A stretch of 64,000 bases of DNA from an uncultured Bdellovibrio sp. (GTDB lineage Bacteria; Bdellovibrionota; Bdellovibrionia; Bdellovibrionales; Bdellovibrionaceae). The notes under the pieces are model-generated. The model had not been told where the DNA came from, did not search any database, and saw nothing but the letters and a program-made list of their open reading frames with translations. The translations under genes were made by a program, and so were the position numbers. Of the stretch, positions 9,845-35,831 are shown piece by piece (the first letter of the stretch is position 1; every line of letters starts with the position of its first letter). Location: assembly GCA_964645745.1 (NCBI GenBank), contig CAZXZW010000002.1:5299-69298 (forward strand), written 5' to 3'.

Positions 9845-10456
9845 TTAAAGCATGAATCCCATTTGTTTAGGTGATCTTACGATTTGTGGGAATTTAAATT
9901 CAGGTTTACCTGTTAAAGAAACTAAATTTTCAATCGCAGGAGATTTTCCGCCAATTGAAATACGTTTAGTCATTTCAACGAATAAACGACCACAATAAGT
10001 CGCATCTTCTTCAGCTCTGTGGAAGTTAGAAGCTGGAATTTTCAAGTGTTGAACCAAAGTTCCTAATTTATAATTTGGAAGACCTGGGAACACTTTACGT
10101 GCGATCGGAAGTGTATCTAGAACGACTCCGCGAGGAGCAGCTAATTCAAGACGTTTAATATCAGCTAAAAGAAATTGAGAATCGAATGGTGCATTGTGAG
10201 CTACCATTGGAAGATCCTGACAGAATTCAGCGAATGAAGGAAGAATGTCTTCGATCAAAGGTTTGTCAAAAACCATATCATCCGTAATACCATTCACCGC
10301 AGATGCGCCAGCTGGAATAGGACGTTGTGGGTTAATTAAAGTTGAGAATACTGACTCAACTTCTTGGCCGTTAAATAATACCGCACCGATTTCGACGATT
10401 TGGTCAACACCGGGTACAGTTCCTGTAGTTTCTAAGTCAAAAGCTATGAATCTCAT
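9845..10456 (-). CDS. DnaQ-like 3'-5' exonuclease (DNA polymerase III epsilon family)
   Basis: Exo I FDLETTG, Exo II AHNAPFDSQFL, Exo III HRAEEDA. Start set at MRFIAFDLETTG. Confidence 0.85.
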   Translation of the reverse strand: MRFIAFDLETTGTVPGVDQIVEIGAVLFNGQEVESVFSTLINPQRPIPAGASAVNGITDDMVFDKPLIEDILPSFAEFCQDLPMVAHNAPFDSQFLLADIKRLELAAPRGVVLDTLPIARKVFPGLPNYKLGTLVQHLKIPASNFHRAEEDATYCGRLFVEMTKRISIGGKSPAIENLVSLTGKPEFKFPQIVRSPKQMGFML

Positions 10457-10479
10457 ATATATTTTGATACAAATAAAAC

Positions 10480-10827
10480 ATGACTGTTTCAAGAAAAACA
10501 CTCACCTTAGCTGAAACTTTTTTCCAAGAGGAAATTAAACTGGAAATTGATGTAAAAAGATCAACTTCAGTGACATTACTTGAGACTTTTAACGCCAACA
10601 AAGTAAGCATAAATCAGTCTTGTGGTGGAAATGGAACCTGCGGTACTTGCCGAGTGGAAATCATGCAAAATTCTGATTTTTTAAGACCCAAATCGGATTA
10701 TGAAACAGACGTCACTCAAGAGCTCGATTTGCTTCCCCATCAGAGACTTTCTTGTCAGGCTGAAATTAATGTAGACTCAGAAGCCGTAGATTTTTTGGTT
10801 AAAATCGTCAATGAACCTATCGATTAA
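10480..10827 (+). CDS. 2Fe-2S ferredoxin
   Basis: Cluster-binding pattern CGGNGTCGTCRV plus the distal LSCQA. Confidence 0.8.
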   Translation: MTVSRKTLTLAETFFQEEIKLEIDVKRSTSVTLLETFNANKVSINQSCGGNGTCGTCRVEIMQNSDFLRPKSDYETDVTQELDLLPHQRLSCQAEINVDSEAVDFLVKIVNEPID

Positions 10828-11984
10828 TTAACGTAGAAATTATTAGTGAAAATCCAGGTTAACCATTTATCCGCATCAGGAAATGGTAATGTCGTGCTTA
10901 AACGCACTTGAATACGGTAGACACCTTTTCCAGCAATAGGGAAATCTCCGATCGAAGTATTACGGTGATCGATGCGTTCTCCATTTTTGTATAAAACAAC
11001 TTCGTGATACACGTTAGGTTCGCGTGGCAGTTTAAAGAATAAACGTAATGATGAATCATAGCGTGTTTCATCACCCATAAAAGTGAATTGATTGTGACGT
11101 TTCGAAATCAAGTAAGATTCAAATCCGGTTGAATCCCCCATGGTATCTATCGAAACATAGAACGATCCGCTTTTGAGTGAATTGAAAATCGCTTTCTTAT
11201 CATTTTCCATGTTGCTGGAAAGCTCAGAGGTCATTAAGAGACGTTCACTCGCAATATTGAAAACGTTTTCGTAGCTGGGGAATTTGATGAGCCAGTTCGT
11301 GATCGGAACGGCCTTAGCTGTAGCTTCTGAAGACAGATAAAGATTGCGTTTCTTTTTTAAAGACATTTGGTCAAAGATTTTCAACTCATCGTCTGGATCA
11401 CGGTAAAGACGAAGCAAAGCTACTTTGGGATTAAAGGGGTAGAATAATAAACTCCAAATAGTGGAAACTTTTTTGTTTATCCACACTTTGTTGGCTAGAT
11501 TTTTTAGATTCACTACATCTAGTCCATCCGCAAAACCCAGGGGCTCAAGATTCGTGTTCATGTGGTCAATAACGATAACGTCTTGTGGATAATTCTCTAG
11601 ATAAGTGGCGTTGTAGTAATTAATGATATTTTTATTTGTGGCCGAATAGACGGTGTAAGAATTTTCATCGTTGATGATTTTAGCACCGAATAATTGGCCC
11701 ATGTTCATTAAATAACGATCTTGATCTAAATTTACAGATGGATTGAGATCAGTAAATAAAACAAATTTAGATTGAGAGCGCTTTGATTCTTCCGAAATAG
11801 AGCTATAAGTTCCAGATCCGATCGACATGCTCGAGTAAATATTTTGGTGAAGTTTGTAGTTATAAAAAATATTATTGGCTTTAATTTCTTTACCAAAGAG
11901 GTCAAATTGGTATTGAGAGAGATAAAATCCAAAAGTAACGTAAGCAAGAAAAAGAGTACTGATAGATATAAAAAATCTATTCAT
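10824..11984 (-). CDS. Hypothetical membrane-anchored protein, translationally coupled to the upstream GT39 gene
   Basis: 386-aa ORF with an N-terminal TM segment (ISISTLFLAYVTFGFYL). 8-nt overlap with the upstream gene. No recognisable motif. Confidence 0.6.
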   Translation of the reverse strand: MNRFFISISTLFLAYVTFGFYLSQYQFDLFGKEIKANNIFYNYKLHQNIYSSMSIGSGTYSSISEESKRSQSKFVLFTDLNPSVNLDQDRYLMNMGQLFGAKIINDENSYTVYSATNKNIINYYNATYLENYPQDVIVIDHMNTNLEPLGFADGLDVVNLKNLANKVWINKKVSTIWSLLFYPFNPKVALLRLYRDPDDELKIFDQMSLKKKRNLYLSSEATAKAVPITNWLIKFPSYENVFNIASERLLMTSELSSNMENDKKAIFNSLKSGSFYVSIDTMGDSTGFESYLISKRHNQFTFMGDETRYDSSLRLFFKLPREPNVYHEVVLYKNGERIDHRNTSIGDFPIAGKGVYRIQVRLSTTLPFPDADKWLTWIFTNNFYVN

Positions 11985-14236: not shown

Positions 14237-15024
14237 TATCTCATTTCCTTTTGAATCAATTGGATCATTTCGGTTGATTTAGCGCGGTGTTTGCCTTCAG
14301 GGAATATTTTAACTAACTCTTCAAAACGCGCTAAGGCTTTTTGTTTATTACCTGTACGGTAGTAAGCGATGGCTCCGTAGAAGTGAGCATCATCGACACG
14401 CTCAAGCACGCAGAATTGAGTGGCCTTATCTAATTGCTCTGCTGCTAGTTTTGCGTAGTTCGTTTCCATAAGAGATCGAGCATAGTAAACTTGAGTGTAA
14501 CAGTCTTCGCGGTTGTCACTTAAGATTTTAGAAAGATAAAGTTTCGCCTGATCAAATTTATTTTGATTAAAATAAAGAAGACCATAGTTGAAATAAGCAC
14601 TGTGAGCATTCGTGTAAGTTAAATCTGCTAAGACTTCATCTAATAAACGAGCCGCTTTGCTGTATTGTTTCTGTTCGATGTACACACGCGCTAAATTATT
14701 TTTAGCTTCGGTGAAGGCCGGATTTAAAGTGACTGCTTCAGTAAAATACTTAACCGAGAGATCATATTTTTCACGAAGATAATAAACAATACCGAGATTG
14801 TTGTGAACGTAAGGATTTTTAGGATCTAATTCCAGCGCACCTAAAAGTTCTTTTAAAGCTAATGGTAAATTGTTTCTCTGCATGTGAGAAACGCCGATTT
14901 CCATTTTAAGCTCAGCGGCCCGGGCCTTATTATTTTGATTAGTACTTACGCAACCCCATGTGAACAACACTGTGATCACAATTGAGAATGAAAGTAAGAG
15001 GTTTCTCATCATTTTACTGGTCAT
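14236..15024 (-). CDS. TPR lipoprotein, PilW/PilF-like
   Basis: Lipobox LFTWGC, then about six TPR repeats. The position upstream of rodZ matches the common pilW-rodZ pairing. Confidence 0.6.
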   Translation of the reverse strand: MTSKMMRNLLLSFSIVITVLFTWGCVSTNQNNKARAAELKMEIGVSHMQRNNLPLALKELLGALELDPKNPYVHNNLGIVYYLREKYDLSVKYFTEAVTLNPAFTEAKNNLARVYIEQKQYSKAARLLDEVLADLTYTNAHSAYFNYGLLYFNQNKFDQAKLYLSKILSDNREDCYTQVYYARSLMETNYAKLAAEQLDKATQFCVLERVDDAHFYGAIAYYRTGNKQKALARFEELVKIFPEGKHRAKSTEMIQLIQKEMR

Positions 15025-15078
15025 GTCTTTATGCTAGCATCAGACAGATTTGAGTCAATGAATGAAAGCGATTTATGC

Positions 15079-19771: not shown

Positions 19772-19960
19772 ATTTAGATTAATGTGTGAGTCATTGTTTT
19801 AGAGTGAAAAAGCCAAAATCTCAAGTCTAGAACAGAAATGCCGCATTGGCGAATCCCCGTGGGGATTTCAGAGACAAAATGAAAAATTTAATTGCGTTTA
19901 TTCGAAGCATTATTATGATAGAGGCTGATATAACAATTAATGATCATCACCGGAGGTTTC

Positions 19961-20578
19961 ATGAAACAAACAATTTTGGCCGCATTCGTCCTGGGTTTAG
20001 CACTCGTTTCCCAAAATGCATTGGCTGACACGACAACAGGAACGACTTCAATCTTTTCGAAGAACCAAAAATTCGATAATGAAGGTGTTGAGCTTTACAA
20101 TAACAACCTAGATATGAAATCGATGAAGAAAATCGGCGCCGGATTGGCCGCTGCGGGTATGATGGGAACGATCGGATTGAATGTTGAGGTCAATCTTGAG
20201 CCGGAAGATACAGTTTTCTTCGGTTTAGGAACTGGAAAAGGCTTCAATACATTTAATTTCGGATATAAGAAAAATTATGAAGGATATTATATGTCGCCCT
20301 ACACAAAAGTCGGGTTAACAAGATGGTCAAGCGCCTCAAATGCGGGTGCCGGAGCCTCTTCCGGATCAGATGTTTTACGTCAAGTTTTGTCGGATAATGA
20401 GATCAGAGAAAACAATTTTTATGTGAACTTTTTAGCGGGTGGAGCGGGCTTAGAATACAACCAATTAGAAGGAAATTTATCGGGTGTAAATTTGTTCGGA
20501 GAGTTGTTAGTGTTAGCTGATATTTCTGATTTGAAATTAGTTCCAACAGGTTCAATCGGAATCACATACTTCTACTAA
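19961..20578 (+). CDS. Putative small outer-membrane beta-barrel protein
   Basis: Signal peptide MKQTILAAFVLGLALVSQNALA, Gly/aromatic alternating strands and a C-terminal GITYFY typical of OMP termini. Start set at the internal Met. Confidence 0.5.
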   Translation: MKQTILAAFVLGLALVSQNALADTTTGTTSIFSKNQKFDNEGVELYNNNLDMKSMKKIGAGLAAAGMMGTIGLNVEVNLEPEDTVFFGLGTGKGFNTFNFGYKKNYEGYYMSPYTKVGLTRWSSASNAGAGASSGSDVLRQVLSDNEIRENNFYVNFLAGGAGLEYNQLEGNLSGVNLFGELLVLADISDLKLVPTGSIGITYFY

Positions 20579-20989: not shown

Positions 20990-21724
20990 ATGACGTATTT
21001 TTTGTTGTCGAGCCTCGGATTTCTTTCCGTTCATCGGATAATGTATCGTCTTGAGAAGTTTTTTTTGATGAATCGAAAAAAATCGACTCTTTCATTCGTG
21101 ATTTTGACATCTCCGATGTATTTTTTTGTGTTTATCAAAGACCATTTTGCGATTCTCATGGTCTATATCGGACTAATTTTGGTAAGCTTGATCTTTTTTT
21201 CGTTTTTTTATGAAATAAAATTAAAAAAAGTGTTCTTAACATCACATTTGAACGTGATTGATGGCCTAATTTTGCAAATTCGTGTTGGAAATTCCACACA
21301 AAAAGCGATTTCGGAGACTTTTTCGCACATGAAAGGCTTTGAAAATATAATTTATGAACCTTTGCGATCGATTTTAAAGCCTGATTTTGACGTTCATGCG
21401 AATTCTTATCGATGGATTCGCTTTTATTTTTCGGAATTGCACCATATTTTTAGATCTGAAAGCCGCGTGGGCGAACAATTAGAGATGTTTAAGCGTGGTT
21501 TGAAAGTTCAAAACCGATTTTTGGCACGCACATCGCATGTCACTCGACAAATTAAGGCGCAAGCGCTCGTCGCATGTCTAGTTTACGGTTTAATTTTCGC
21601 ATTATCTTATTATCAACTCGATCTTTTAAGTTCGCCGACGACCGTTATATTGTCGCTTATGCTTTTCTTGATCGGAATTTTTCTTATTTTTAGGATCGGG
21701 AGTCGAATTAAATGGAAAATATGA
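20990..21724 (+). CDS. Integral membrane protein, possibly T2SS-F/TadB-like
   Basis: Three N-terminal TM segments, a helical soluble segment (VIDGLILQIRVGNSTQKAISETF ... LEMFKRGLKVQNRF), then C-terminal TM segments. The topology resembles the T2SSF domain. The assignment is weak. Confidence 0.35.
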   Translation: MTYFLLSSLGFLSVHRIMYRLEKFFLMNRKKSTLSFVILTSPMYFFVFIKDHFAILMVYIGLILVSLIFFSFFYEIKLKKVFLTSHLNVIDGLILQIRVGNSTQKAISETFSHMKGFENIIYEPLRSILKPDFDVHANSYRWIRFYFSELHHIFRSESRVGEQLEMFKRGLKVQNRFLARTSHVTRQIKAQALVACLVYGLIFALSYYQLDLLSSPTTVILSLMLFLIGIFLIFRIGSRIKWKI

Positions 21725-22134
21725 ATTTACCAGCGTCATTAGTGCTGGTGTGGGATCTGCGGCGCGCGGTTGAACGAAGCCAATCATTACATATCGGCAT
21801 AAAAAGATTCACTGAACGCAATCTAAAGTGCAAATTCGCACTTCAATTTCAAAATTGGTGGCATCATTACCGCTTGAATCATGCCATGCCTGCGATGAAG
21901 TGGACGATGCATCAACGTGTGTTGATTCAATTGATAGAAAAAGGTCTAGCTGGAACTCCAATATATGATTACCTTGTGGATTTAGATGCGCAAATGATCA
22001 ACTCGTGTGAAGAAGATATTGAAAAACACATCTCACTGCTCCCTTTGATTTTGCAAATACCTTTACTTGGTCTATTGTTTCCAGCTATTTTAATGTTGTT
22101 ATTGGTGCCAGCGCTCAAACTCTTGCAGCTGTGA
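21712..22134 (+). CDS. Small membrane protein, possibly T2SS-F/TadC-like
   Basis: Soluble helical part followed by a C-terminal hydrophobic segment, LLPLILQIPLLGLLFPAILMLLLVPAL. It overlaps the upstream gene by 13 nt. Confidence 0.3.
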   Translation: MENMNLPASLVLVWDLRRAVERSQSLHIGIKRFTERNLKCKFALQFQNWWHHYRLNHAMPAMKWTMHQRVLIQLIEKGLAGTPIYDYLVDLDAQMINSCEEDIEKHISLLPLILQIPLLGLLFPAILMLLLVPALKLLQL

Positions 22135-24738: not shown

Positions 24739-24814
24739 GGCTCGGTAGCTCAGTTGGTAGAGCAGAGGATTGAAAATCCTTGTGTCGGCGGTTCAATTCC
24801 GTCTCGAGCCACCA
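24739..24814 (+). tRNA. tRNA-Phe (anticodon GAA), CCA encoded
   Basis: Cloverleaf read by eye. Acceptor GGCTCGG/TCGAGCC, D-arm TAGCTCAGTTGGTAGAGC, anticodon loop TTGAAAA, T-arm GGCGGTTCAATTCCGTC, discriminator A plus CCA. Confidence 0.95.
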
Positions 24815-24857: not shown

Positions 24858-25490
24858 TTACTTCATTCCACCCACGAAGCTTGTGTCCTTATTGGATCTC
24901 ATTTCTATTTCGGCCCAGAAGCGTCTTTGTGAAAAATCCTCAAAATATTCAGGATTTAATTTTAAAGGTCTGATAGTCCCACCAAATTCATTATGGCAAA
25001 TAATACCTACCAATTGATCGAGTTTAGAGTCTGCGCTTACAGTACCTAAAATGATTGTATTTTCAGAATGAGGTCCACATAAATTATTGAATTCTATATC
25101 GAGCTGCTGTTTGTTCTCAGGCGTAAGTATATTCAAAAAAGAGTGAGCTGTTAATGAAATGAACTTTTCATTTTTAAAAAATAGTGAGGCTTTATGTGCT
25201 CCTATATCGTAAATCTCATCTATTTGAAAAAGTTTTTTCTTTTCCACATAAGCCCAATAGAGCGTTTGATTTTTGATTGTTGCACAGTCTTCGCAAATTG
25301 ATTCGATTACTTTACAATAATGTGAATTTCCACAGGTTTCCACACAAATTTTATCATTAGCTGTACAAGATATAACAATACTTTTTTCTAGAACTTGACT
25401 ATCCGAAAAACCGACAACGCTCTCAAAATATGCTGCTTGAGAGTAGACAGTAGTAGAAATTAAAAGAATAAAGAGAATGAAATTTTTCAT
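24858..25490 (-). CDS. Secreted Cys-rich hypothetical protein (210 aa)
   Basis: Signal peptide MKNFILFILLISTTVYSQA, 8 Cys including the cluster SCTANDKICVETCGNSHYCKVIESICEDC. 1-nt overlap with the upstream gene. Confidence 0.65.
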   Translation of the reverse strand: MKNFILFILLISTTVYSQAAYFESVVGFSDSQVLEKSIVISCTANDKICVETCGNSHYCKVIESICEDCATIKNQTLYWAYVEKKKLFQIDEIYDIGAHKASLFFKNEKFISLTAHSFLNILTPENKQQLDIEFNNLCGPHSENTIILGTVSADSKLDQLVGIICHNEFGGTIRPLKLNPEYFEDFSQRRFWAEIEMRSNKDTSFVGGMK

Positions 25491-28015
25491 TAATTAACCT
25501 CGCATGATTGAATATCTTTATCGTTTACGCTTAAGTGAAAACGACTACCATTACTCGAACATTTCATTTTTACACTGACTGGATTTTTACAAGATTTTGA
25601 AATGAAAGTTGCTTGTACATATTTGTCAGCGCGACGTTCACTTTGTTTTAAAATAACAGCATCTGTAATTATTCCTGTTTTGCTTTCAAAATCTTTTTTC
25701 GCTAATTCCTCACATGCGCTAGGTGAGCAATTTAGACCACGGGCTAATAAAGGCACGCACTTTTCAGGAATTTCCCCGTATTGCTTGTAAGTATCCACGA
25801 GGTAATCAACATTTATATTATACTCACGTGGGTTAAGAACATCGCTACGTCTAATATTTCTATATCTCATAATGCTTTCGAACAACCTTACAGCAGATCT
25901 GAGTGGTGAAAATACATTTAAAAAAGAAACTGTGCTTACTTCTTTGAAATTCAAAGCACATTCTACACAACCTTTGTAGTTTGATTTAATGAGTTTCTCT
26001 GTTTGATCAACAGAAGATCCTACGCTAGCAACAGTTTGAGTTTTGCTCCCTTTGCAAGCCTGAACATTTATACCAGAGAAAAGTAGGCGATTGTTCGCTG
26101 CATTTTTGTCATAATTAGCAGTCGAGATACTGATAGAACAAGGCACATTAACAAACGAACCTAAGCTTAGTGCTAGGCTTTTCTCAGATTGTTGCTTGAA
26201 ATCTAAATCAAAAGTAATTTTACCACTTTCTACAAGTTTATTAAAAGAAACTAATTCTTTAGGTTTATATTGGACATCCAAGTAAATAGGTAACTGTGTC
26301 CAACCGAACAATACTGATGTTCCTATGTCAGTTAGCAATTGTTTGTTGTTTAAACGATTAATCTCAAAAGGGTCATAGATCTTACAAGCCACTTTATCAG
26401 CACGATCATTAAATAATGGACTAGATACAATTTGTGTTCTTAAAAAACTACGCGAATGGATGAGAAGTTTATTAGTTTCTACAATACTCTCTGTCATTTT
26501 TCTAAAGCAATCGATAGCATTTTCACACAAATTATTAATATAAGTTTGATTTTTAACTGTAGGTAAAACTTCATTCTTTTCAACTTTTTCTTCAGTATTC
26601 ATAAGGGCAGAAATAATCTGATAGCGACTTAAGAAGTTTTTATACCATTTAGCGTATTTATTCCATACGGCCTGATCTGTTTCAGTTTCAGCAATTCTTG
26701 TGTCAAAATTATCACAAATTTGAGTTAACATAGGAATAACTGATTTATGTGCTAATACAATTTCATGAACTGTCATTCCATATTTTAAATGTTGATCAAA
26801 AACAGCACTATTTTTTTCTAAATTTTCTAGATCCGTTTTCATTAAATTTAAAGGCTGCTCCTGAGTAAGTAAGCGATGTTCAGAACAAAGATAGTGCGCA
26901 AATTCTTTATTATTAGAGTTCGAGAATTCCATTTCTAAATCAGATTTAAGTTGAGATAGGGTTTTTTGCGTGAAAACAGAACTATAGAGCTTGTTTGCTT
27001 TATATAAGTTTTCAATGTTTTTAGATGAAAAACTCATGTAAGATTTCTGAAAATCAGAAATCCATCTGTTTTCGCCTGATTTAGCAGCCATTTCTAAACG
27101 AATCGATTCATCAATTTTATCTGTGTTGTCTGTCAATAAATCTTTCATTTCAAGAGATGAACTCGTCATTTCTAGTTTTGAACGATCAGTTGTAAATAGA
27201 TTTTTTAACTCTGTTGAACTTAAAAATTGAGAACTACATTCAGGTCTTTCTACACTTTTGCAACCATTAGAAATAATAAGTGTTTGCTCTTCGAATGGAA
27301 CTAATTTTGTTAAATTATCTAAGTTTGAATTCGGTAATGATTTTACGTCGTTAATTCTCCAGGCCTGGCTTAAATAAATTTTAAAACTATCCCAAAAATC
27401 AAAACCAATCGAATTCCAATTTTTTTTGTTTTTTATATTAACTAAATCAAAGTTGAATACAGGATAAAGTTCAATTTCAGTCGTAATGTTTTGGCTTCCA
27501 CAATTAAGTTGATTTTGATCAGTCGAGTATTGTTTAGCAAGTTCGGTTAACGCATCTTTAGTCACGCCGCGGATAAACAAATTTGAGTATTTTGTATTAA
27601 TTGCATTTACTTGCAAACAGTTAATTTTTTCAAAATGATTAACTAAATTAATCTTTTTTAAATTTTTCAAATTATATTCAGCTTCCGATTTTGATTTAAC
27701 AAGCGGAAGTTGACCAGAGTTCATTAAGTTAAAAATTTCACTTGAAAGAAATACTAATTTTCTTTTATAAAACTGAAGACCTTCTCCGACAAAGGTAGCT
27801 GGATCTTTTTCAGTTTGTTTAGCAATGTTATTTAAAATGATTCCTGTGCTTCTTAGAGATGCTGTTATAAAAACGGATTCTGTAGGCTTAGCCATATCAG
27901 CTGCGCACTTAGGCGTATTCACTATATTTAGCATTTCATTTTGAGACTGTGAGTTCTGTCCTAATGTTATGCTGGCAAAAATAGAGATAAGCGTGAAATA
28001 GATGATTTTGTTCAT
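25490..28015 (-). CDS. Secreted large hypothetical protein (841 aa)
   Basis: Signal peptide MNKIIYFTLISIFASITLG. Asn/Lys/Ser-rich with about 20 Cys. No recognisable motif. Confidence 0.7.
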   Translation of the reverse strand: MNKIIYFTLISIFASITLGQNSQSQNEMLNIVNTPKCAADMAKPTESVFITASLRSTGIILNNIAKQTEKDPATFVGEGLQFYKRKLVFLSSEIFNLMNSGQLPLVKSKSEAEYNLKNLKKINLVNHFEKINCLQVNAINTKYSNLFIRGVTKDALTELAKQYSTDQNQLNCGSQNITTEIELYPVFNFDLVNIKNKKNWNSIGFDFWDSFKIYLSQAWRINDVKSLPNSNLDNLTKLVPFEEQTLIISNGCKSVERPECSSQFLSSTELKNLFTTDRSKLEMTSSSLEMKDLLTDNTDKIDESIRLEMAAKSGENRWISDFQKSYMSFSSKNIENLYKANKLYSSVFTQKTLSQLKSDLEMEFSNSNNKEFAHYLCSEHRLLTQEQPLNLMKTDLENLEKNSAVFDQHLKYGMTVHEIVLAHKSVIPMLTQICDNFDTRIAETETDQAVWNKYAKWYKNFLSRYQIISALMNTEEKVEKNEVLPTVKNQTYINNLCENAIDCFRKMTESIVETNKLLIHSRSFLRTQIVSSPLFNDRADKVACKIYDPFEINRLNNKQLLTDIGTSVLFGWTQLPIYLDVQYKPKELVSFNKLVESGKITFDLDFKQQSEKSLALSLGSFVNVPCSISISTANYDKNAANNRLLFSGINVQACKGSKTQTVASVGSSVDQTEKLIKSNYKGCVECALNFKEVSTVSFLNVFSPLRSAVRLFESIMRYRNIRRSDVLNPREYNINVDYLVDTYKQYGEIPEKCVPLLARGLNCSPSACEELAKKDFESKTGIITDAVILKQSERRADKYVQATFISKSCKNPVSVKMKCSSNGSRFHLSVNDKDIQSCEVN

Positions 28016-28136
28016 ATAAGCTATTATGCATACTGAAAGCCAAAGAATCGTTTCGCTTTGAAGCAGCTATATACGCTATGGTTAATTTAAAATAAGAGCT
28101 GTCATATCGCCGCCAAAAGAATAAAAGATCGACGTA

Positions 28137-29282
28137 CTATTTTGAGAAACCCCAACGTTTTGCGATTGTGTCATTAGGATTAGAAGAAATTGTTTGAGAA
28201 TTCCAATTGTTCACAAGTTCGCCTAAGGATCTTAGTTTACTATCAATTAAGAATTCATTCTCTGTCTGTGCCTGTGACCATTTCAGAACCATTTGACCTG
28301 CTATCTGATCATCTGAGCTGTATACATTTTGATTATTGTAAATTAATTCAGTAATTTGAATGATTAAAGCTTGTATGACGGCGTCTCTGGAATAAGTGCT
28401 GAAGTTGTAATAGCGCTCGCTATCAACTGCGCAAGTTGATTTTCTGCACTCTCTAGCTCCTGTTTCGACAGATTGAATACGCTCATCAATCCTTTGAGTT
28501 AAGTGTGAAATAATATGAATCAACTTACTGTTTGAATCTACAGGATGACCGATGAGTTTTGTTGTCACGAAGTCATCAAAATTCATCTTGAGTATATTAA
28601 ATTGTTCACTTTTGTCTGATTCAGAATATTGAGGATATGAAAATTCACTTTTTTCAAGTTTAGGCCATTTAAATTTATAAAAGCCTGATACGTATTTACT
28701 TGGCCATTTAGTTTTTGCAAACGGATACTCAAGAAGATCACGTACAATCCGAGGAGAAGTAGAAGACATTAAAGTTATAGGAGGGGAAAATCCATTTAGA
28801 TTAACATTAGAAACCCATTCTACATGGCTTGAATTCATATAAAGAATCCCGGGTTTAACAGTGCTCGCATTTATGCTAATGGGTTCAAGATCTTTCATGA
28901 GACTATTTGTGTTTGTTGAATTTTGTATCCAATCCAAAGCAGCCAAAAATCTTTGGTCTGAATTCCAAGACAATCCTTTTTCTATTTTGTTCCATTGAAA
29001 AGATAAATTACTAATTTTTGTTCCATTTGTTAGCGTAGCTAAAGCGGGTAGTTTGTTTTCATAAGCATAGATCCAACGAATAGCTATAGCTGCATCAGCA
29101 CAATCAGTTTTTAGCTTATGAATTCTAAAAAACGATGAATTAATGTTTTTTTTAACCCAATTCGAATATGCAGTTTCAGCTTGAACATCCCAATTTTTAT
29201 CAGAACTCCAAATTTGAGCATGAACTAAAATCGATGAAAAACAAATTAAAAAAAACAAATTAAAGTATTTCATTACTGACAA
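28137..29282 (-). CDS. Secreted hypothetical protein (381 aa), possible papain-like Cys/His fold
   Basis: Signal peptide ending VHAQ. KTDCADAAIAIRWIYA and, about 85 aa later, PGILYMNSSHVEWV resemble NlpC/P60-type Cys and His segments. This is speculative. Confidence 0.6.
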   Translation of the reverse strand: MSVMKYFNLFFLICFSSILVHAQIWSSDKNWDVQAETAYSNWVKKNINSSFFRIHKLKTDCADAAIAIRWIYAYENKLPALATLTNGTKISNLSFQWNKIEKGLSWNSDQRFLAALDWIQNSTNTNSLMKDLEPISINASTVKPGILYMNSSHVEWVSNVNLNGFSPPITLMSSTSPRIVRDLLEYPFAKTKWPSKYVSGFYKFKWPKLEKSEFSYPQYSESDKSEQFNILKMNFDDFVTTKLIGHPVDSNSKLIHIISHLTQRIDERIQSVETGARECRKSTCAVDSERYYNFSTYSRDAVIQALIIQITELIYNNQNVYSSDDQIAGQMVLKWSQAQTENEFLIDSKLRSLGELVNNWNSQTISSNPNDTIAKRWGFSK

Positions 29283-30829
29283 ACTTTTTTTGCAAAACTT
29301 ACTATGTTTAGTTGATAATTTTCAAACACAGGAGAAGATTTTTTTACACTTAATGGGATGATATTTTTATTCGTATCTATAGAAAACTTAATTTCTAGAC
29401 GAATAAATGATTTGTTTGTTCCAGAAAGTTTAAAACAGTTTAAGTTCTTTGAATCGCACACACGGTCATAATAGTTAGACCAGCTTTTTTTCATATTTTG
29501 AGCGTCACTGAATTCAATTATACCTTTTTGACCAAGACTTATTGTTGGAAGTGATGCTAGTTTTGATAATTGGCCTAGTTGACCTGCTTTAGGCAAAGAA
29601 GGAAGTCTTTCTTCGTCGTAGCTATTACTCACATCTAAGTTAGAATTCAAATTTAAGTAATCATCTGAAGAAGTTAGCTCATCCAAAGATGAGCGAGGTT
29701 CATAAAATTCAGCAACTAATGTCAACTCTTGATCTACTAGTAAGTCAGGATTGATTTCAAGAGCTCCCATAGATACACCGGATAAATTATTCTCAGTTCT
29801 GAACTCAGCGAGGCCAGTCCAATTTGAAGGTATTTTCAATGCATGAACCCAGCTTGATACAAGATTAGTTTTTTGAGTTTTAATATTATGATTGTATAAG
29901 CGCAATTTTCCAACAACAGGAGCAGAGTAAGATGAAGTTCTAGCACAAGTCCCGTCTTTACAGAATTCTTTAGCAAAGTTTTCGACTAAAAACGAAGGCT
30001 GTAATAAAGCTTTGTTTTTTCCACTTGGAATAAGATTTACAGAGCCAGGGCTAATGTTAGTCGTTATCGCGCTTACAAATAATGAGTCCTCGTTCGACTC
30101 TTTGATAGAGCGTGGCATGAAACCTTTAGCCGGAAGCAAAGTATGACGTACGTATCGCGCTCCGATTGGTGATTGAACTTTTAATTCCCCAGCCTCTACG
30201 CTAACAGGCCATAGTTTAATGACAGATTCATAATCAGCGGCTTGAATTTGATTTTCATTTAAGAATTGTGAATTGTAGCAATCAGGATTTATTTTTTGCT
30301 CTATATTTAATTTCGACATAGTATCAACAGCTATAAAGCATCCATTGCCATCAGTTACTACAGTCGAACCTTGTTCGTTTAAAGAAGTTATTTTACATTG
30401 TGATTTAGGATGTGTTTTTACTTTGAACCCACGGATATCAGAAATGATAAGTTGAACACATTGTTTTTGAAATTCGTTCTTTTCTGCTAGTAGTTTAGAA
30501 GATATTTGGTTATCAATTCTTTGAAAAGGAACTGATGTTTCAATACTGCAGTTAGATTTATTTTGAACTAAGTTACCAGAGATAGATTCTAATCGAGAAG
30601 TGTCATCTTGGTAGTAAATCGAGTTGAAATTAACTAAGATATATTTTTCATCAGAAGTACAACGCTCGATTCCGATCTGAGCGTTGTTTGTTTTCGAATT
30701 CATTTTAGTTGTTTTACTTGCTGGATCGATCACGAACTGAGTTTCTGTTAATGCTCTTGCAACTTCACAGGCCAATACTTGAGAACCTATTGCTGATACT
30801 AAAAGTCCGATTATTGCTGCTTTTAACAT
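29273..30829 (-). CDS. Secreted or lipoprotein-like hypothetical protein (518 aa)
   Basis: N-terminus MLKAAIIGLLVSAIGSQVLAC (signal or possible lipobox), 12 Cys, GAGGA RBS. 10-nt overlap with the downstream gene. Confidence 0.7.
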   Translation of the reverse strand: MLKAAIIGLLVSAIGSQVLACEVARALTETQFVIDPASKTTKMNSKTNNAQIGIERCTSDEKYILVNFNSIYYQDDTSRLESISGNLVQNKSNCSIETSVPFQRIDNQISSKLLAEKNEFQKQCVQLIISDIRGFKVKTHPKSQCKITSLNEQGSTVVTDGNGCFIAVDTMSKLNIEQKINPDCYNSQFLNENQIQAADYESVIKLWPVSVEAGELKVQSPIGARYVRHTLLPAKGFMPRSIKESNEDSLFVSAITTNISPGSVNLIPSGKNKALLQPSFLVENFAKEFCKDGTCARTSSYSAPVVGKLRLYNHNIKTQKTNLVSSWVHALKIPSNWTGLAEFRTENNLSGVSMGALEINPDLLVDQELTLVAEFYEPRSSLDELTSSDDYLNLNSNLDVSNSYDEERLPSLPKAGQLGQLSKLASLPTISLGQKGIIEFSDAQNMKKSWSNYYDRVCDSKNLNCFKLSGTNKSFIRLEIKFSIDTNKNIIPLSVKKSSPVFENYQLNIVSFAKKVCQ

Positions 30830-30855
30830 AAATTCCTCAGTTCGTTTATTTTAAA

Positions 30856-31911
30856 TTACTCTCTAGTTTCGTCGATAGCAGTGTATGTACACATTTCAGC
30901 ACCGCGACGAGTCCAGTCACGGAAGATTGAAGCTTTGTCTGCTCCACATTGAGCACCTTTAGTCTCAGTGAATACATATCTAATTTTGCAAAATCTTAAG
31001 TTAAGAGCTGAAGTGCTTAATAAGTCCATTGCATCACCAGTTAAACTTCTTAAATCAGACGAACGGAAGAAGCTTCCATTTTGTCCGCCAGTTGGAAGTC
31101 CATCAGCACCGATTACGAAGTCAGCTTCATTTTCAGAAGTGTTGTATACACCTGAAGAATTTGTAGCATTTTGTAATACGCCTTGACCTTGTAAATCACA
31201 CACAACATATGATTGAACTTTTACGCCAGCCATTTGTGTATAACGTTGTAATTCAGAGTTGTTCAACATGATTAAACCGTCACGATTGTTATCACCTTGT
31301 GTTTGTCCTACTGATAAAAAGTCAGTAGATCCCACATTATTTAAAATGCTGTAGTTAGCGCTAATTCCATTTTGAGTATATTCATGTTGAGGGGCACGGT
31401 AACAAATATCGACGAAGTATTGAGCTGTGTAGGCTTCAGAACCTAATTCAAATAATACATCTTCAACTTTTGTATCCATAGCTGCGCTGTTCGGAGCTAA
31501 CTGTTGAAACACACTTGGTTTTCCAGTCACTACCATGTTTGAACGTGGACCTTGAGCTTGAGAATGATCTGTCCAGCCGCGTTTACCAGCTGTTAAGTAA
31601 TTCATATAAGCTTCACCGTTTCCAGTTCCGCGGCTGATACATTTAATACGAGATCCGCAGTTTGTTGCAGTCGTAGCACATGACCCTGGACGATCTACAG
31701 GAGTTTTAGTTCCATCTGAATTTTCTTTATAACACACGTCACAATTAAGTGGAATTGTTCTTAATCCAGCGTTACAGGCATACATATCTGGACCAGATGA
31801 TGTGACCTTGAATTTAAATCGATACTCTAATGCGGAAGCGTTTTGAGCTAGCGGTAAAAGTACAGCTATTGTTGCAAATGCTTTTTTCAAATTTTTTACG
31901 ATCGTTTTCAT
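30856..31911 (-). CDS. Secreted Cys-rich hypothetical protein (351 aa), candidate major component
   Basis: Signal peptide ending AQNASA, about 11 Cys. It has the strongest RBS in the cluster (AGGAGA 6 nt before the ATG). A spot GC count is higher than for its neighbours. Confidence 0.7.
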   Translation of the reverse strand: MKTIVKNLKKAFATIAVLLPLAQNASALEYRFKFKVTSSGPDMYACNAGLRTIPLNCDVCYKENSDGTKTPVDRPGSCATTATNCGSRIKCISRGTGNGEAYMNYLTAGKRGWTDHSQAQGPRSNMVVTGKPSVFQQLAPNSAAMDTKVEDVLFELGSEAYTAQYFVDICYRAPQHEYTQNGISANYSILNNVGSTDFLSVGQTQGDNNRDGLIMLNNSELQRYTQMAGVKVQSYVVCDLQGQGVLQNATNSSGVYNTSENEADFVIGADGLPTGGQNGSFFRSSDLRSLTGDAMDLLSTSALNLRFCKIRYVFTETKGAQCGADKASIFRDWTRRGAEMCTYTAIDETRE

Positions 31912-31965
31912 GTTTTCTCCTGTTTGTTGTTTTTAAGTTTACTTAGTTATTATTTTAGTTAAAGG

Positions 31966-32550
31966 TTAGTTTAAGCATCCGCCCTGTGCTAATTGCTTAT
32001 AAATTTCTAATTTAATTAATTGAATGAATTTCATGTCTGAAGTTAGTGCCTTCATGTTGTAGGTTCCGTCTTCGCGTTCAGCAATAGCGCGTGCTTTATT
32101 ATTAATAAAGTCATCGACATCAATTTTGAAGTCTGTCGCACACTTCATATTGGTATAAGAAATGTTAACACCTAAATAAGGTAGGCTTTGGTTTTGATTT
32201 GCTCCACCTAAATTGATTGTTGTTCCTGCTGCACCGGTTTGATTGCCTACACCAGCATTGAATGAGATAGCCCATCCTTTTTTCTTGTCCACGCGAGATA
32301 CGAATGTACATCCGTGCTCATCACACTTTTCTTCAATTTCAGCATTCATATGAGCAATTAATGCCGCATCAGTTTGAGACAAATAAGATTTGCTATCTTG
32401 CTTAACTGTGCCGATTTCTAACTCTCCTAAACCTTTTTCAGTTGCAGATTGTGTTTGAGTAGAAATAACTGGCTGGGTTTCAGGAGGTTGTTGGGCGAAT
32501 AATACTAAACTTGTAAGTACGCATAATGTTGAAAGTAATATATTTTTCAT
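31966..32550 (-). CDS. Secreted hypothetical protein (194 aa), first gene of the cluster
   Basis: Signal peptide MKNILLSTLCVLTSLVLFAQ, a Gln/Thr-rich linker, 4 mature Cys, C-terminal GGCLN. Confidence 0.6.
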   Translation of the reverse strand: MKNILLSTLCVLTSLVLFAQQPPETQPVISTQTQSATEKGLGELEIGTVKQDSKSYLSQTDAALIAHMNAEIEEKCDEHGCTFVSRVDKKKGWAISFNAGVGNQTGAAGTTINLGGANQNQSLPYLGVNISYTNMKCATDFKIDVDDFINNKARAIAEREDGTYNMKALTSDMKFIQLIKLEIYKQLAQGGCLN

Positions 32551-32957
32551 TTATTTTGTCTTTCTGTTGTTTGTTATGATTACACAGATCTGTAAAGCAA
32601 ATCGTTAGCCAAACATTATCTAACTAAATCTCATTTAAACGATTTGGAGTTTTGAAAAATTAGAAATGACAATTAGTGCAAACAGTATGTAAATAATTAG
32701 TCGCTCGGCAAAATTTCTTATCTATATAGAGTAGACAGCATTAAAATATATATATCAAAATGAGACGAAATATATTTCGTTCTTTTTTAGAAGCTTCAAG
32801 ATTTATTATATAATATCACAACAAGTGACCTGAAGACGCACAAGTTCAAAAAATTATATATAAAATTATAGGTAAAAAACGTATCGATCTAGAGCTTGTC
32901 TGGAAAATGGGGAAAAAGGATGTGTCAGAAAATATCAACTGATTTGTAAGTAGTCAT

Positions 32958-33698
32958 TTATTTTTCCCACCAACCAAATGGTCCTGAAAGATGTAGATAG
33001 GAAAACGTTTTTGCATCAGAATTTTTATTCTTCATTCGCATGCTTGATAGTAGAGAATACTTTTTAAAAACTGTCTGCATCTCTGAAATATAGCTCCGTT
33101 GTTCTTCTGTAGTCAAAAAGAGCTCTTTAGCTGCACATTGCATCGAATCTTTAGGTGTGGAGCGATTAATACCATATTTAGTCATTTCCTTTTGGACTTT
33201 TTCAATAATTTTTTTTTTGTAGGTTTTTTCAAGCGGTCCATTTTCTATCCACTGAAAAGGAAAGTGTGCTAAGATTTTAATTTTATCATTCGGCCATAAT
33301 TCAATCAGCTGACATTTTTCGAGAGCTTTGATCGAACGATTGAGTTCGATTCTATTTATTTTTAACTCTGATTGAATGTTATCAAGATCAGTATTCATCA
33401 ACATCAGTCTAAAAACGAGAAAGTGCTGAAAATCTTTCGACAAAGTATTTTCTTGCTCTAAAGAAAACTCATAAACTTGAGCTGTTTGTTCTTTGGCTTG
33501 TTCAATCAATTCAAAAAAATCCACGCCGATACAGCGACTGATTTCGATAAGTTTTGATAGCGAAATATCATCACTATTTAAAATACGCTTAACCGAGGGA
33601 AGCGAAAGATTTAGTTTTTTCGCCAGCTGTTCATACTTAACACCCGAAGCTTTTAGACTATTTTTAATAGTGGTTTGAATTTGAGAAAGTTCATTCAT
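32958..33698 (-). CDS. XRE-type helix-turn-helix transcriptional regulator with an uncharacterised C-terminal domain
   Basis: N-terminal HTH (YEQLAKKLNLSLPSVKRILNSDDISLSKLIEISRCIGVDF). The ~170-aa C-terminal part has no recognised motif. Confidence 0.65.
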   Translation of the reverse strand: MNELSQIQTTIKNSLKASGVKYEQLAKKLNLSLPSVKRILNSDDISLSKLIEISRCIGVDFFELIEQAKEQTAQVYEFSLEQENTLSKDFQHFLVFRLMLMNTDLDNIQSELKINRIELNRSIKALEKCQLIELWPNDKIKILAHFPFQWIENGPLEKTYKKKIIEKVQKEMTKYGINRSTPKDSMQCAAKELFLTTEEQRSYISEMQTVFKKYSLLSSMRMKNKNSDAKTFSYLHLSGPFGWWEK

Positions 33699-33806: not shown

Positions 33807-34688
33807 ATGAGAGTCGTATTTTTAATTGTCAGTTTTGCACAGTTGGTTTTCGCCGCGACTGAGCCGGTTTTATTTCATTCTATCAACAGCTTTAATCACC
33901 CCGAAAGCGTTTTGGTTGAACAGAATACTTTATGGATTTCAGATATGGGCCAAAATCCTTCTGAAGTAGAAAATGCCGATGGGAATCTAGTTAAATATAA
34001 TTTATCCGGAGACCTTGATCAGACTTTTACTTTGAAGACAAAACTGAATTCGCCAATGGGTATGGCGATTATTAAAGATACGATTTACTTAGCAGATATT
34101 AATCGTGTCGTTGGTGTTAACAAAAATTCAGGAGAACTCGATCAAGTCTTTGATCTTTCATTTTCAAGCTCTGTGTTTTTAAATGATATCGTGGCTATCG
34201 AGGATCAATATCTTATCGTCACAGCGACTGACATTAAAAAAATATACTTAATATCTTTAAATCAAAACAAAGTCGAAGAGCTTAATATTGATTTTCATGG
34301 ATATACCCCTAATGGAGTATTCTATGAAAAACAAACTCATATTCTTTATTTTGCCTCAAATGAAAAACATGCCTTAGGTCAAGAGGGGAATGGGAAGGTT
34401 TCAAAGTATTTATTTGAAAATAAAAAGGCTACTTTCCAGCAGGAATTTTCCGTTGGCAAATTTCTTGATGGTGTCTTTGTTAAAGAAGATCAGATAGTCG
34501 TGTCGGACTGGCAATCTGCCGGTAATGACGGCAAGATTTATATCTTGGACAAATCAAGCATAGTCTTATCTCATGAATTCAGTCTTAAAACATCAGGTTT
34601 AGCTGATATGGATTACTCTGAGAAAAATAAAGTTTTAGTGACTCCTGATTTTATTCAAGGAATCGTTAGGCTTTACAAGTTTCAGTAA
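33807..34688 (+). CDS. Secreted hypothetical protein, possibly a beta-propeller
   Basis: Signal peptide MRVVFLIVSFAQLVFA. Repeated short beta-strand blocks (IYLADIN, YLIVTATD, LYFASNE, IVVSDWQ) suggest propeller blades. Confidence 0.45.
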   Translation: MRVVFLIVSFAQLVFAATEPVLFHSINSFNHPESVLVEQNTLWISDMGQNPSEVENADGNLVKYNLSGDLDQTFTLKTKLNSPMGMAIIKDTIYLADINRVVGVNKNSGELDQVFDLSFSSSVFLNDIVAIEDQYLIVTATDIKKIYLISLNQNKVEELNIDFHGYTPNGVFYEKQTHILYFASNEKHALGQEGNGKVSKYLFENKKATFQQEFSVGKFLDGVFVKEDQIVVSDWQSAGNDGKIYILDKSSIVLSHEFSLKTSGLADMDYSEKNKVLVTPDFIQGIVRLYKFQ

Positions 34689-34691
34689 GAT

Positions 34692-35186
34692 TCAGTGTTT
34701 AATGTTTGAGGCTTCTTCCTCTTTTGAAACTTTCATGACGTAGCTGACGAAATCAGGGTCTTCGCCGTGAAGCAATTCCGGAAGTAATTCACGGAAATCT
34801 TTGCGGCGGCACCAGATGCGAATATAGTCATCCCATGAAAGCCACATACGCGCGGTTTGTTTGTTCATGTCTTCTTCGTAGACTAAGATGAAGGCACGTT
34901 CAAACAGTGAAATGAGAATATCAAAAATAATTTTTTTACGTTCAATTTGTTCTTCAGTGAGATTTGTATTTGAAATCTCTTTTGAAGTTAATTGAAGGTC
35001 GGCATTTTCTAGTAACAATTTTGAAAACTCAACGTACTCTTCAGAAAGCTTTTGATAGATTTCTTCTTCTTCGTTTTGTCTTTCGCGTCTTTGTTCCCAG
35101 TAAAAGACACCAATAGCGAGCGGCAAACCGACAACGGTTACGACATAACTAGCAAGTTCCCAATTTTCAAGATTTAGAAATTCCAT
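34692..35186 (-). CDS. Hypothetical membrane-anchored protein (164 aa)
   Basis: One N-terminal TM segment (LASYVVTVVGLPLAIGVFYW), then an acidic helical domain. No motif recognised. Confidence 0.45.
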   Translation of the reverse strand: MEFLNLENWELASYVVTVVGLPLAIGVFYWEQRRERQNEEEEIYQKLSEEYVEFSKLLLENADLQLTSKEISNTNLTEEQIERKKIIFDILISLFERAFILVYEEDMNKQTARMWLSWDDYIRIWCRRKDFRELLPELLHGEDPDFVSYVMKVSKEEEASNIKH

Positions 35187-35306: not shown

Positions 35307-35831
35307 TTGATGGAAAAAATATCTTTAAGTGAAATTGAACAATGCATTTTTATTGTGAGGAAGCAGAAAGTGATGCTAGATGCGGATTTAGCCAAAATCT
35401 ACGGAGTTGAAACACGACAGCTCAATCAAGCAGTTAAAAGAAATATGCATCGGTTTCCTAGTGATTTTATGTTTAGGTTGAGTGTCGAAGAAACTGATTT
35501 TTTAAAATCTCGGATGGTAGATCTAAACTTGAGATCACAATTTGTGATCTCAAAAAAGCCCGGTGGTTCTAGGTACTTACCTCATGTTTTTACTGAACAC
35601 GGGGCTTTAATGCTAGCTAATATTCTTAATAGCGAAGCGGCCGCTGAAGCTAGTATTCAAGTTGTGCGTTCATTTGTTCGGTTGCGCGAAATGATTGTAT
35701 CGCATGCGGAACTTTCTCGAAAGTTATCGGAATTGGAAAAGAAATATGATTCGCAATTTAAAGTAGTGTTTGAAGCTATTCATAAATTGATGGTTATTCC
35801 CGAAGTTCCGAAAAAGAAAATCGGGATTTAG
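35307..35831 (+). CDS. ORF6N-domain DNA-binding protein (phage/mobile-element associated family)
   Basis: VRKQKVMLDADLAKIYGVETRQLNQAVKRNMHRFPSDFMFRLSVEE matches the ORF6N signature as I recall it. C-terminal coiled-coil tail. Confidence 0.75.
   Translation: MMEKISLSEIEQCIFIVRKQKVMLDADLAKIYGVETRQLNQAVKRNMHRFPSDFMFRLSVEETDFLKSRMVDLNLRSQFVISKKPGGSRYLPHVFTEHGALMLANILNSEAAAEASIQVVRSFVRLREMIVSHAELSRKLSELEKKYDSQFKVVFEAIHKLMVIPEVPKKKIGI

Follow-up and report, generated by a model that had tools for sequence, protein, structure and literature searches.

We analyzed a 64,000-nucleotide stretch of DNA from an uncultured Bdellovibrio sp. (contig CAZXZW010000002.1; called here the window). Its minus strand carries six tightly packed open reading frames (ORFs), lettered A to F in the order of transcription, which an earlier note made from the sequence alone had described as an orphan operon for secreted, Cys-rich proteins with an upstream regulator. 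The block is present in a single copy in the window. Its genes and the adjacent features are the following, with the orthologs in Bdellovibrio bacteriovorus HD100.

Gene A, 31966-32550, minus strand: 194 aa, first gene of the block; small, predicted exported Gly-rich protein; HD100 ortholog Bd0754
Gene B, 30856-31911, minus strand: 351 aa; predicted exported all-beta protein; HD100 ortholog Bd0751
Gene C, 29273-30829, minus strand: 518 aa; predicted lipoprotein, directly 3' of B; HD100 ortholog Bd0750
Gene D, 28137-29273, minus strand: 378 aa; predicted exported, Cys-His hydrolase-like protein with NlpC/P60-like (papain-fold) motifs; HD100 ortholog Bd0748
Gene E, 25490-28015, minus strand: 841 aa; large, predicted exported protein, half helical, 20 Cys; HD100 ortholog Bd0753
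Gene F, 24858-25490, minus strand: 210 aa; small, predicted exported protein with 8 conserved Cys; HD100 ortholog Bd0752
Leader 5' of A, 32551-32957, minus strand: 407 nt, non-coding, AT-rich (GC 0.28); presumed promoter region
Spacer between D and E, 28016-28136, minus strand: 121 nt, joining the A-B-C-D and E-F sub-blocks
Helix-turn-helix gene R246 (HTH_3, XRE type), 32958-33698, minus strand: same strand as the block, beyond the 407-nt leader
tRNA-Phe gene, 24739-24814: just beyond the 3' end of F

The ORF listing bears out the sizes and gaps given in the earlier note (54, 26, -10, 121 and -1 nt from A to F); it has D begin at a TTG codon (28137-29282, 381 aa). Judging from the sequence, the true start of D is almost certainly the ATG at 29273, which overlaps the end of C in the sequence TAATG, since independent gene calls and a 96%-identical homolog also give 378 aa; C and D then overlap by 1 nt. 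The AT-rich leader and the XRE-type gene on the same strand upstream are present as described. In the window, the neighbors of the block have housekeeping roles (malate dehydrogenase, succinyl-CoA ligase, NDK, cysteine metabolism, uridine kinase).

Read by eye, each of the six N termini runs from a K/R n-region through a hydrophobic core to a cleavage site with small residues. Signal-peptide calls were made by this manual reading of the n-, h- and c-regions and by a crude heuristic, which detected signal-peptide-like N termini in 79 to 97% of family members versus 35% of control ORFs. At the level of these two approaches, the signal peptides that had been assigned to all six proteins hold. The lipobox suspected in one of them is that of C (VLAC), whose Cys residue is invariant in 55 sequences.

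Mature parts rich in Cys had also been claimed, and this is what we found: the window proteins contain 4 (A), 11 (B), 12 (C), 3 (D), 20 (E) and 8 (F) mature-part Cys residues, and the cysteines are conserved within the families. In the A family (52-sequence alignment), C80, C136 and C191 are invariant and C75 is nearly so. The B family has six invariant and three nearly invariant Cys residues, the E family 17 and three, and the F family six and two, respectively; the C family (55 sequences) has five invariant Cys residues besides that of the lipobox and five more that are nearly invariant. In A, B, C, E and F, cysteines are the strongest conservation signal of the family, and the invariant ones pair in count, with the exception of one in D. 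The best explanation of these sequence features is that the products of the block are exported by Sec and stabilized by disulfides in the periplasm or outer membrane.

Conservation of the block and its genomic surroundings

The block is not a chance arrangement, because all six families sit together in about 80 independent, species-level genomes of Bdellovibrionota; the term "orphan" is thus not appropriate for it. Taxonomic breadth was determined by scanning one genome per GTDB species with a motif-seeded search for B, from which 80 of 91 matches were kept. Every match named to genus or family belongs to Bdellovibrionota (Bdellovibrio, Pseudobdellovibrio, Bacteriovorax and Halobacteriovorax). 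The closest relatives are Pseudobdellovibrio metagenome-assembled genomes (MAGs), in keeping with the predator-like host that had been surmised from the DNA, and clusters of the window proteins at 90% identity are small, with 3 to 5 members each. More distantly, B has 99 homologs with identities down to 28%, the named ones all from Bdellovibrio-type bacteria and some labeled "protease" by NCBI, and E is represented by 114 family clusters among 1.84 billion representatives.

In two distant loci, one from a B. bacteriovorus assembly and the other with the Bdellovibrio sp. NC01 protein, BLASTP showed the six homologs side by side. Their order there is A-E-F-B-C-B'-D, B' being a paralog shorter than B that makes seven genes where present. 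With iterated profile searches, almost all loci of sufficient length yielded A, B, C, E and F, and 35 loci yielded D. All-versus-all clustering of ORFs of at least 100 aa gave the same picture, with B recurring in 80 loci, C in 78, A and E in 73 each, F in 66 and D in 35. No seventh recurring partner emerged from this clustering of the 80 loci: no regulator, ATPase, secretin or transporter family travels with the block. Together with the scans of the window, this agrees with the statement of the earlier note that the cluster contains no ATPase, transporter, usher or secretin. A response-regulator family was considered as a partner and rejected, being generic and present in 17 loci at variable distance.

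Two pairs of neighbors are fixed. C directly follows B in 76 cases (median gap, 30 nt), and F directly follows E in 66 (median gap, -4 nt); over all neighbor pairs, median gaps range from -8 to +59 nt. A is usually directly 5' of E or B (73 loci). Around these pairs, the order varies with the lineage. The Bdellovibrio arrangement is A-E-F / B-C / B' / D, and that of Bacteriovorax and Halobacteriovorax is B-C / A-E-F. In most Pseudobdellovibrio-like MAGs, F and E are divergent from A-B-C-D; in the next-closest relatives of the window locus (L005, L006, L008, L010 and L045), they are found on the opposite strand, 5' of A. The order A-B-C-D-E-F was found in the window and in its closest relative, locus L087, whose spacer between D and E is 125 nt long. 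The comparison of synteny in related genomes, proposed in the earlier note, thus showed co-occurrence of the six genes with permuted sub-blocks. At least three genomes labeled B. bacteriovorus (strains Bd5, kdesi and YOA24) contain two diverged copies; in Bd5 and kdesi, the second copy (loci L081 and L082) has the order A-E-F-B-C-B'. Between the window and L087, identity amounts to 83% for B, 57% for E, 41% for D and 40% for F; B is the most conserved member.

Some loci show additional variation. In loci of the B. bacteriovorus type, a 133-aa ORF overlaps the end of D (plus strand, positions 14663-15064 of locus L001; Bd0747 in HD100). It recurs in six loci and could be an eighth operon gene particular to this lineage. 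Two copies of D are present in L043 and two copies of A in L060, and in L053-L061 B' is divergent upstream of B. Such single-gene duplications and inversions, seen in some MAGs, suggest that turnover within the block is still going on.

The surroundings of the cluster in the window raise the possibility that it was acquired horizontally, as cargo of an island or of a prophage remnant, with tRNA-Phe as the site of insertion and the neighboring XRE-type repressor in control. The tRNA gene does adjoin the cluster, whose GC content is 0.34 versus 0.39 in both flanks, and R246 matches phage-repressor PHROGs, with an ORF6N anti-repressor-like gene 2.7 kb further; the genomic context of the cluster also differs between genomes. 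However, there is no integrase among the ORFs at 24.8 to 36 kb, the 3' end of tRNA-Phe has no second copy in the window (allowing up to 3 mismatches), relatives of B were not found in IMG/VR viral contigs, and the six genes are vertically widespread in the phylum. The flanks of L087 consist of ABC-transporter and glutathione S-transferase genes on one side and a methyl-accepting chemotaxis protein gene on the other, with neither the HTH gene nor the tRNA, both of which are missing from all fetched loci. No homolog of R246 was found in 84 loci, and this gene adjoins the block only in the same or near-identical assemblies. As for composition, B has the highest GC content of the six genes (0.394), the others ranging from 0.317 to 0.369. 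GC per gene tracks protein conservation, from slowly evolving B to fast-evolving E (0.317), which fits relaxed constraint better than foreign origin and makes the deviation weak evidence. Altogether, we regard acquisition as an island as highly improbable.

From the different flanks of L087, the absence of R246 from 84 loci and the lack of a repeat and of an integrase, it follows that R246, tRNA-Phe and the impression of an island are local accidents of this genome. Neither the regulator nor the tRNA, which the earlier note had mentioned along with the operon, can be counted as part of the unit, since both are absent from L087 and no regulator family recurs next to the cluster. The leader matched no Rfam family (across the region Rfam found just the tRNA), and its predicted folding was no better than that of shuffled sequence (z = 0.77). 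In a scan for sigma-70-like promoters and terminators, counts did not exceed those of shuffles, and no sigma-28 (attack-phase) promoter was detected upstream of the cluster genes in the window and about 70 loci.

Other genes near the block were noted in passing. The ORF6N-domain protein (35307-35831, plus strand, 174 aa) has a Pfam E value of 8e-33 and matches the PHROG category "anti-repressor" with an E value of 1e-25. Next to it is the gene for a 164-aa protein that belongs to no family and has a hydrophobic segment at its N terminus (34692-35186, minus strand). Located between the udk/upp genes and the region of the cluster, the two may be a small prophage or defense remnant. Divergent from R246, positions 33807-34688 (plus strand) code for a 293-aa exported protein with weak beta-propeller-like hints (TIGR03118, E = 0.002; DUF5122, E = 0.1); its gene is found together with R246 and the cluster on near-identical Logan contigs. 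Three consecutive ORFs of 212, 244 and 140 aa (19940-20578, 20990-21724 and 21712-22134, all on the plus strand) are located 5' of the cysteine-metabolism genes; the first two have no Pfam match, and the 140-aa product has a strongly hydrophobic segment at its end.

Family and structure searches

Scans of the six window proteins as single sequences yielded no Pfam, NCBIfam or PHROG match, and per-member Pfam scans of 42 to 70 sequences per family gave only scattered singletons for A, B, C, E and F. Sequence and profile searches of the PDB returned nothing for any of the six families, including profile searches with the D family. No hidden paralogy between families was seen when A was aligned with F, B with C, and C with E using hhalign.

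Structural models were computed with AlphaFold2 (AF2) for B and E. The model of B, based on a 70-sequence alignment, is all-beta, with a predicted local distance difference test score (pLDDT) of 88 and a predicted template modeling score (pTM) of 0.85. Foldseek returned no PDB match with an E value below 0.001 (best TM score <0.3) and just weak jelly-roll-like noise in BFVD. The "protease" label given to B by NCBI and in legacy annotation is unsupported because neither the family searches (no Pfam match in 70 members) nor Foldseek gave a meaningful match, and it was rejected. The model of E (81 sequences; pLDDT 85, pTM 0.84) is 50% helical, with several very long helices, a charged long beta-hairpin (residues 577-617), a second hairpin of low confidence (644-692) and a small C-terminal beta domain; its best PDB match had an E value of 0.09 and a TM score below 0.15. 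Five of the six families therefore have no known family or PDB relative, and among solved structures nothing related to the two confident models, those of B and E, was found. The earlier note had been unable to place any of the proteins in a family, which holds for A, B, C, E and F but not for D.

D differs in that its conserved residues form recognizable motifs. Among 32 Bdellovibrionota sequences, D59-C60-A61, R68, G144, H152, R267 and R298-D299 are invariant, and D80-C81-A82-D83 is invariant among 37 distant homologs. The motifs read TDCADA(V/A)YAxR and PG[D/T/I]-L/I-[FY]...(G/R)H[AV]xxI. The exact form PGDLY...RHVYII occurs in members from Bacteriovoracaceae (loci L056, L061 and L066); in most others, T, I or V takes the place of the Asp in the "GD" motif, and the window protein reads KPGILY...SHVEWV. 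Weak matches to DUF4846 were obtained for 9 of the 32 members and 2 of the 37 distant homologs (11 of 69 sequences), with a best E value of 1.6e-4, and single members match SpvD and Amidase_6; the window protein itself has no Pfam match. DUF4846 has been classed as papain-like and proposed to be an NlpC/P60-like, cell-wall-modifying domain (PMC10318531). Of the three Cys residues in the mature window protein, two are at a distance of five residues from each other, which leaves the invariant candidate nucleophile as the odd one.

Based on these motifs, D is probably a papain-fold, NlpC/P60-like Cys-His hydrolase and a candidate cell-wall enzyme. Like the NlpC/P60-like hydrolases including DUF4846, it appears to be exported, and its invariant Cys is in a D-C-A/S-type motif. 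Its invariant His follows a partial match to the PG(D)-hydrophobic-[FY] "GD" motif, the Asp of which is kept only in the Bacteriovoracaceae members. In contrast to those hydrolases, its matches are sub-threshold, a third catalytic residue that is conserved was not found, and there is an extra C-terminal half. The latter, of about 200 residues, has invariant STxxRD and RWG motifs of its own and no relative was found for it. The predatory peptidoglycan-modifying enzymes of Bdellovibrio include DD-endopeptidases (PMC3276566). Those enzymes are of the PBP4-type serine class, are induced on prey entry and are encoded singly. As exported cell-wall-active enzymes of the same organisms, they offer a plausible functional neighborhood for D, but D would be of the Cys-His type, is not entry-induced and is embedded in a conserved six-gene block.

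Two contigs from Thermodesulfobacteriota metagenomes (L085 and L086, positions 10001-11638) code for stand-alone D proteins of 530 to 700 aa. They have a signal peptide and, at the C terminus, a tandem repeat of about 90 aa (IEARWGL.KCEMI...SIAF.E..YRK.DP.YADFS). A gene for a 284-aa protein without a family precedes the D gene, and the other five families of the block have no member nearby.

Among known systems, the size profile and Cys richness of the block loosely recall the TraN, TraU, TraH, TraW and TrbC proteins of F-type type IV secretion systems (T4SS). These are Sec-exported, Cys-rich periplasmic or outer-membrane proteins of mixed sizes that are encoded side by side and thought to form one complex. 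Adjacent genes for Sec-exported, Cys-rich proteins of mixed sizes are the shared trait; there is no profile or structural similarity, no T4SS ATPase, VirB-type core or pilin is nearby, and the block is chromosomal and confined to one phylum. This likeness, which serves as a lead only, raises the question of whether the block might be a very divergent assembly set for a surface fiber, pilus or conjugation-like structure in the periplasm, with membrane machinery encoded elsewhere. B is beta-sandwich-like and has a paralog, as often observed for pilins and fiber subunits, and the legacy name of Bd0749 is "pilus assembly protein", without profile support. The searches that bear on this idea argue against it: the per-member scans gave no Tra, Trb, pilin, usher or chaperone Pfam match, Foldseek had no PDB match for B and E, and no ATPase, secretin, usher or prepilin-type signal was seen in or near the cluster at any locus. 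The profile and structure comparison, in which the earlier note had seen a possible refutation, thus gave no match to known pilus or conjugation families, and we consider such an assembly set very unlikely.

A second comparison concerns operons of B. bacteriovorus, Bd2209-Bd2212 and Bd2723-Bd2726, which code for mostly hypothetical proteins and represent two diverged copies (PMC12034629). In the complexes predicted for them, the hub is a protein of about 1000 aa into which the smaller partners dock; the operons have four genes, are expressed in attack phase and were linked to loss of predation in transposon sequencing (Tn-seq) (PMC12034629). Our block resembles them as a Bdellovibrio operon of hypothetical proteins that can occur in two diverged copies, but, as far as a comparison by description goes, it differs by its six or seven genes, by their different sizes and by being near-silent in attack phase. 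In genomes returning two loci in the B-family scan, both loci were of the six-family architecture only.

Expression of the HD100 orthologs and the proposed envelope complex

By coordinates, gene sizes and order, the HD100 cluster corresponds to Bd0748-Bd0754, next to the extracytoplasmic function (ECF) sigma factor gene Bd0743 (Karunker et al. 2013, Table S1). The legacy names of its genes are given below with their growth-phase (GP3) expression in reads per kilobase per million (RPKM; Karunker et al. 2013).

Bd0748 (D): hypothetical protein; 0.85
Bd0749 (B'): "pilus assembly protein"; 0
Bd0750 (C): hypothetical protein; 10.3
Bd0751 (B): "putative protease"; 37.4
Bd0752 (F): "putative cation-transporting ATPase"; 5.1
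Bd0753 (E): hypothetical protein; 8.3
Bd0754 (A): "putative protease"; 28.4

The names of Bd0749, Bd0751, Bd0752 and Bd0754 have no support from any profile or structure search and are misleading. In the library searched, we found no paper that names in its main text any of 12 locus tags within Bd0744-Bd0756, and a Tn-seq supplement (PMC6561027) contained none of six locus tags looked for within Bd0745-Bd0755.

Expression data relate to one copy in one strain, HD100, under laboratory conditions. In attack phase, RPKM values of Bd0748-Bd0754 range from 0 to 0.9; the seven genes show a growth-phase bias, with B and A highest (Karunker et al. 2013). On bdelloplast entry, none of the seven changes significantly in microarrays (fold change of 1.0 to 1.3), and in host-independent growth B is up 2.7-fold and A 5.3-fold (Lambert et al. 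2010). The earlier note had proposed that B might be the abundant component. Its gene does have an AGGAGA Shine-Dalgarno sequence 5 nt before the ATG as well as the top GC content, and in HD100 it is, with A, the most highly transcribed of the set. A role as a prey-interaction module, also put forward in that note, is not favored by orthologs that are unchanged on entry and near-silent in attack phase.

The explanation we favor, although we would put it slightly below an even chance, is that the block codes for a lipoprotein-anchored, disulfide-stabilized envelope complex with a peptidoglycan-modifying subunit, made during growth. In such a complex, the lipoprotein C would anchor the conserved, beta-rich B, in line with the B-C gene pair, and the large helical E would pair with the small, Cys-knot-like F. 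A may be a small adaptor. D, as a putative NlpC/P60-like Cys-His hydrolase, would cut or remodel peptidoglycan or a related envelope polymer. We infer that the six proteins assemble together and that the complex would be built in growth for the envelope of the predator itself, rather than being fired at prey on entry.

Several observations weigh against this proposal. All profile matches of D lie below Pfam gathering thresholds. D is absent from about half of the fetched loci, many of which end at contig ends, and its homologs also stand alone in Thermodesulfobacteriota MAGs from which the other five families are absent, so that D might be an accessory with a loose attachment to the block. The divergence of D, F and E is far faster than that of B, a pattern that would fit diversifying selection on surface or interaction proteins, including prey- or phage-facing ones, equally well. 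All seven HD100 genes were classed as "silent" (<50 RPKM; Karunker et al. 2013), and their changes in host-independent growth disagree, with D, C and F falling to 0.38 to 0.49 (Lambert et al. 2010). Finally, Bd0748-Bd0754 are not among the listed rows of a 2025 predation proteome, which include the flanking Bd0741, Bd0742 and Bd0755.

Some of the same data could be read in terms of prey-directed effectors, secreted singly or in pairs and acting at the periplasm or surface of the prey, with D as a prey-wall hydrolase and the other proteins involved in binding or targeting. All six proteins appear to be exported and disulfide-rich, the module is restricted to a predatory phylum, and fast D, F and E next to a conserved B are what would be expected for interaction surfaces in an arms race. 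The two diverged copies in some genomes and the NlpC/P60-like enzyme in the set point in the same direction, and Bdellovibrio uses specialized peptidoglycan hydrolases on its prey (PMC3276566). In contrast, the absence of induction of the HD100 orthologs on prey entry and their near-silence in attack phase are not the behavior of such effectors, the invariant lipobox of C argues for retention on the producer cell, and the overlap of reading frames in the fixed gene pairs suggests complexes of defined stoichiometry. We hold the effector hypothesis, the main rival of the envelope complex, to be improbable.

If the envelope complex is taken further, the six families might represent an undescribed extracytoplasmic machine made of protein folds without solved relatives, a hallmark of Bdellovibrionota that serves a predator-specific envelope structure or process with D as its enzyme; we find this broader proposition rather doubtful. 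Candidate roles for a machine of this kind include a part in the predator-prey junction, sheath or pole architecture, and wall remodeling in filamentous growth or non-binary division.

Apart from D, the module is new in the sense of being undescribed and unrelated to anything in the libraries searched, not as a demonstrated new mechanism. Bdellovibrionota are studied as "living antibiotics", and the list of molecular parts behind the peculiarities of their envelope and life cycle is largely missing. The module described here has been kept together in at least four genera, from Bdellovibrio to Halobacteriovorax, all its products carry predicted export signals, and it is duplicated in some genomes; as Bd0748-Bd0754, it gives experimentalists a defined and genetically tractable target. 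If D is a cell-wall hydrolase, it would represent a new enzyme family of possible antibacterial interest, and if the proposed complex exists, it would bring folds not seen before and, possibly, an envelope machine of a new type.

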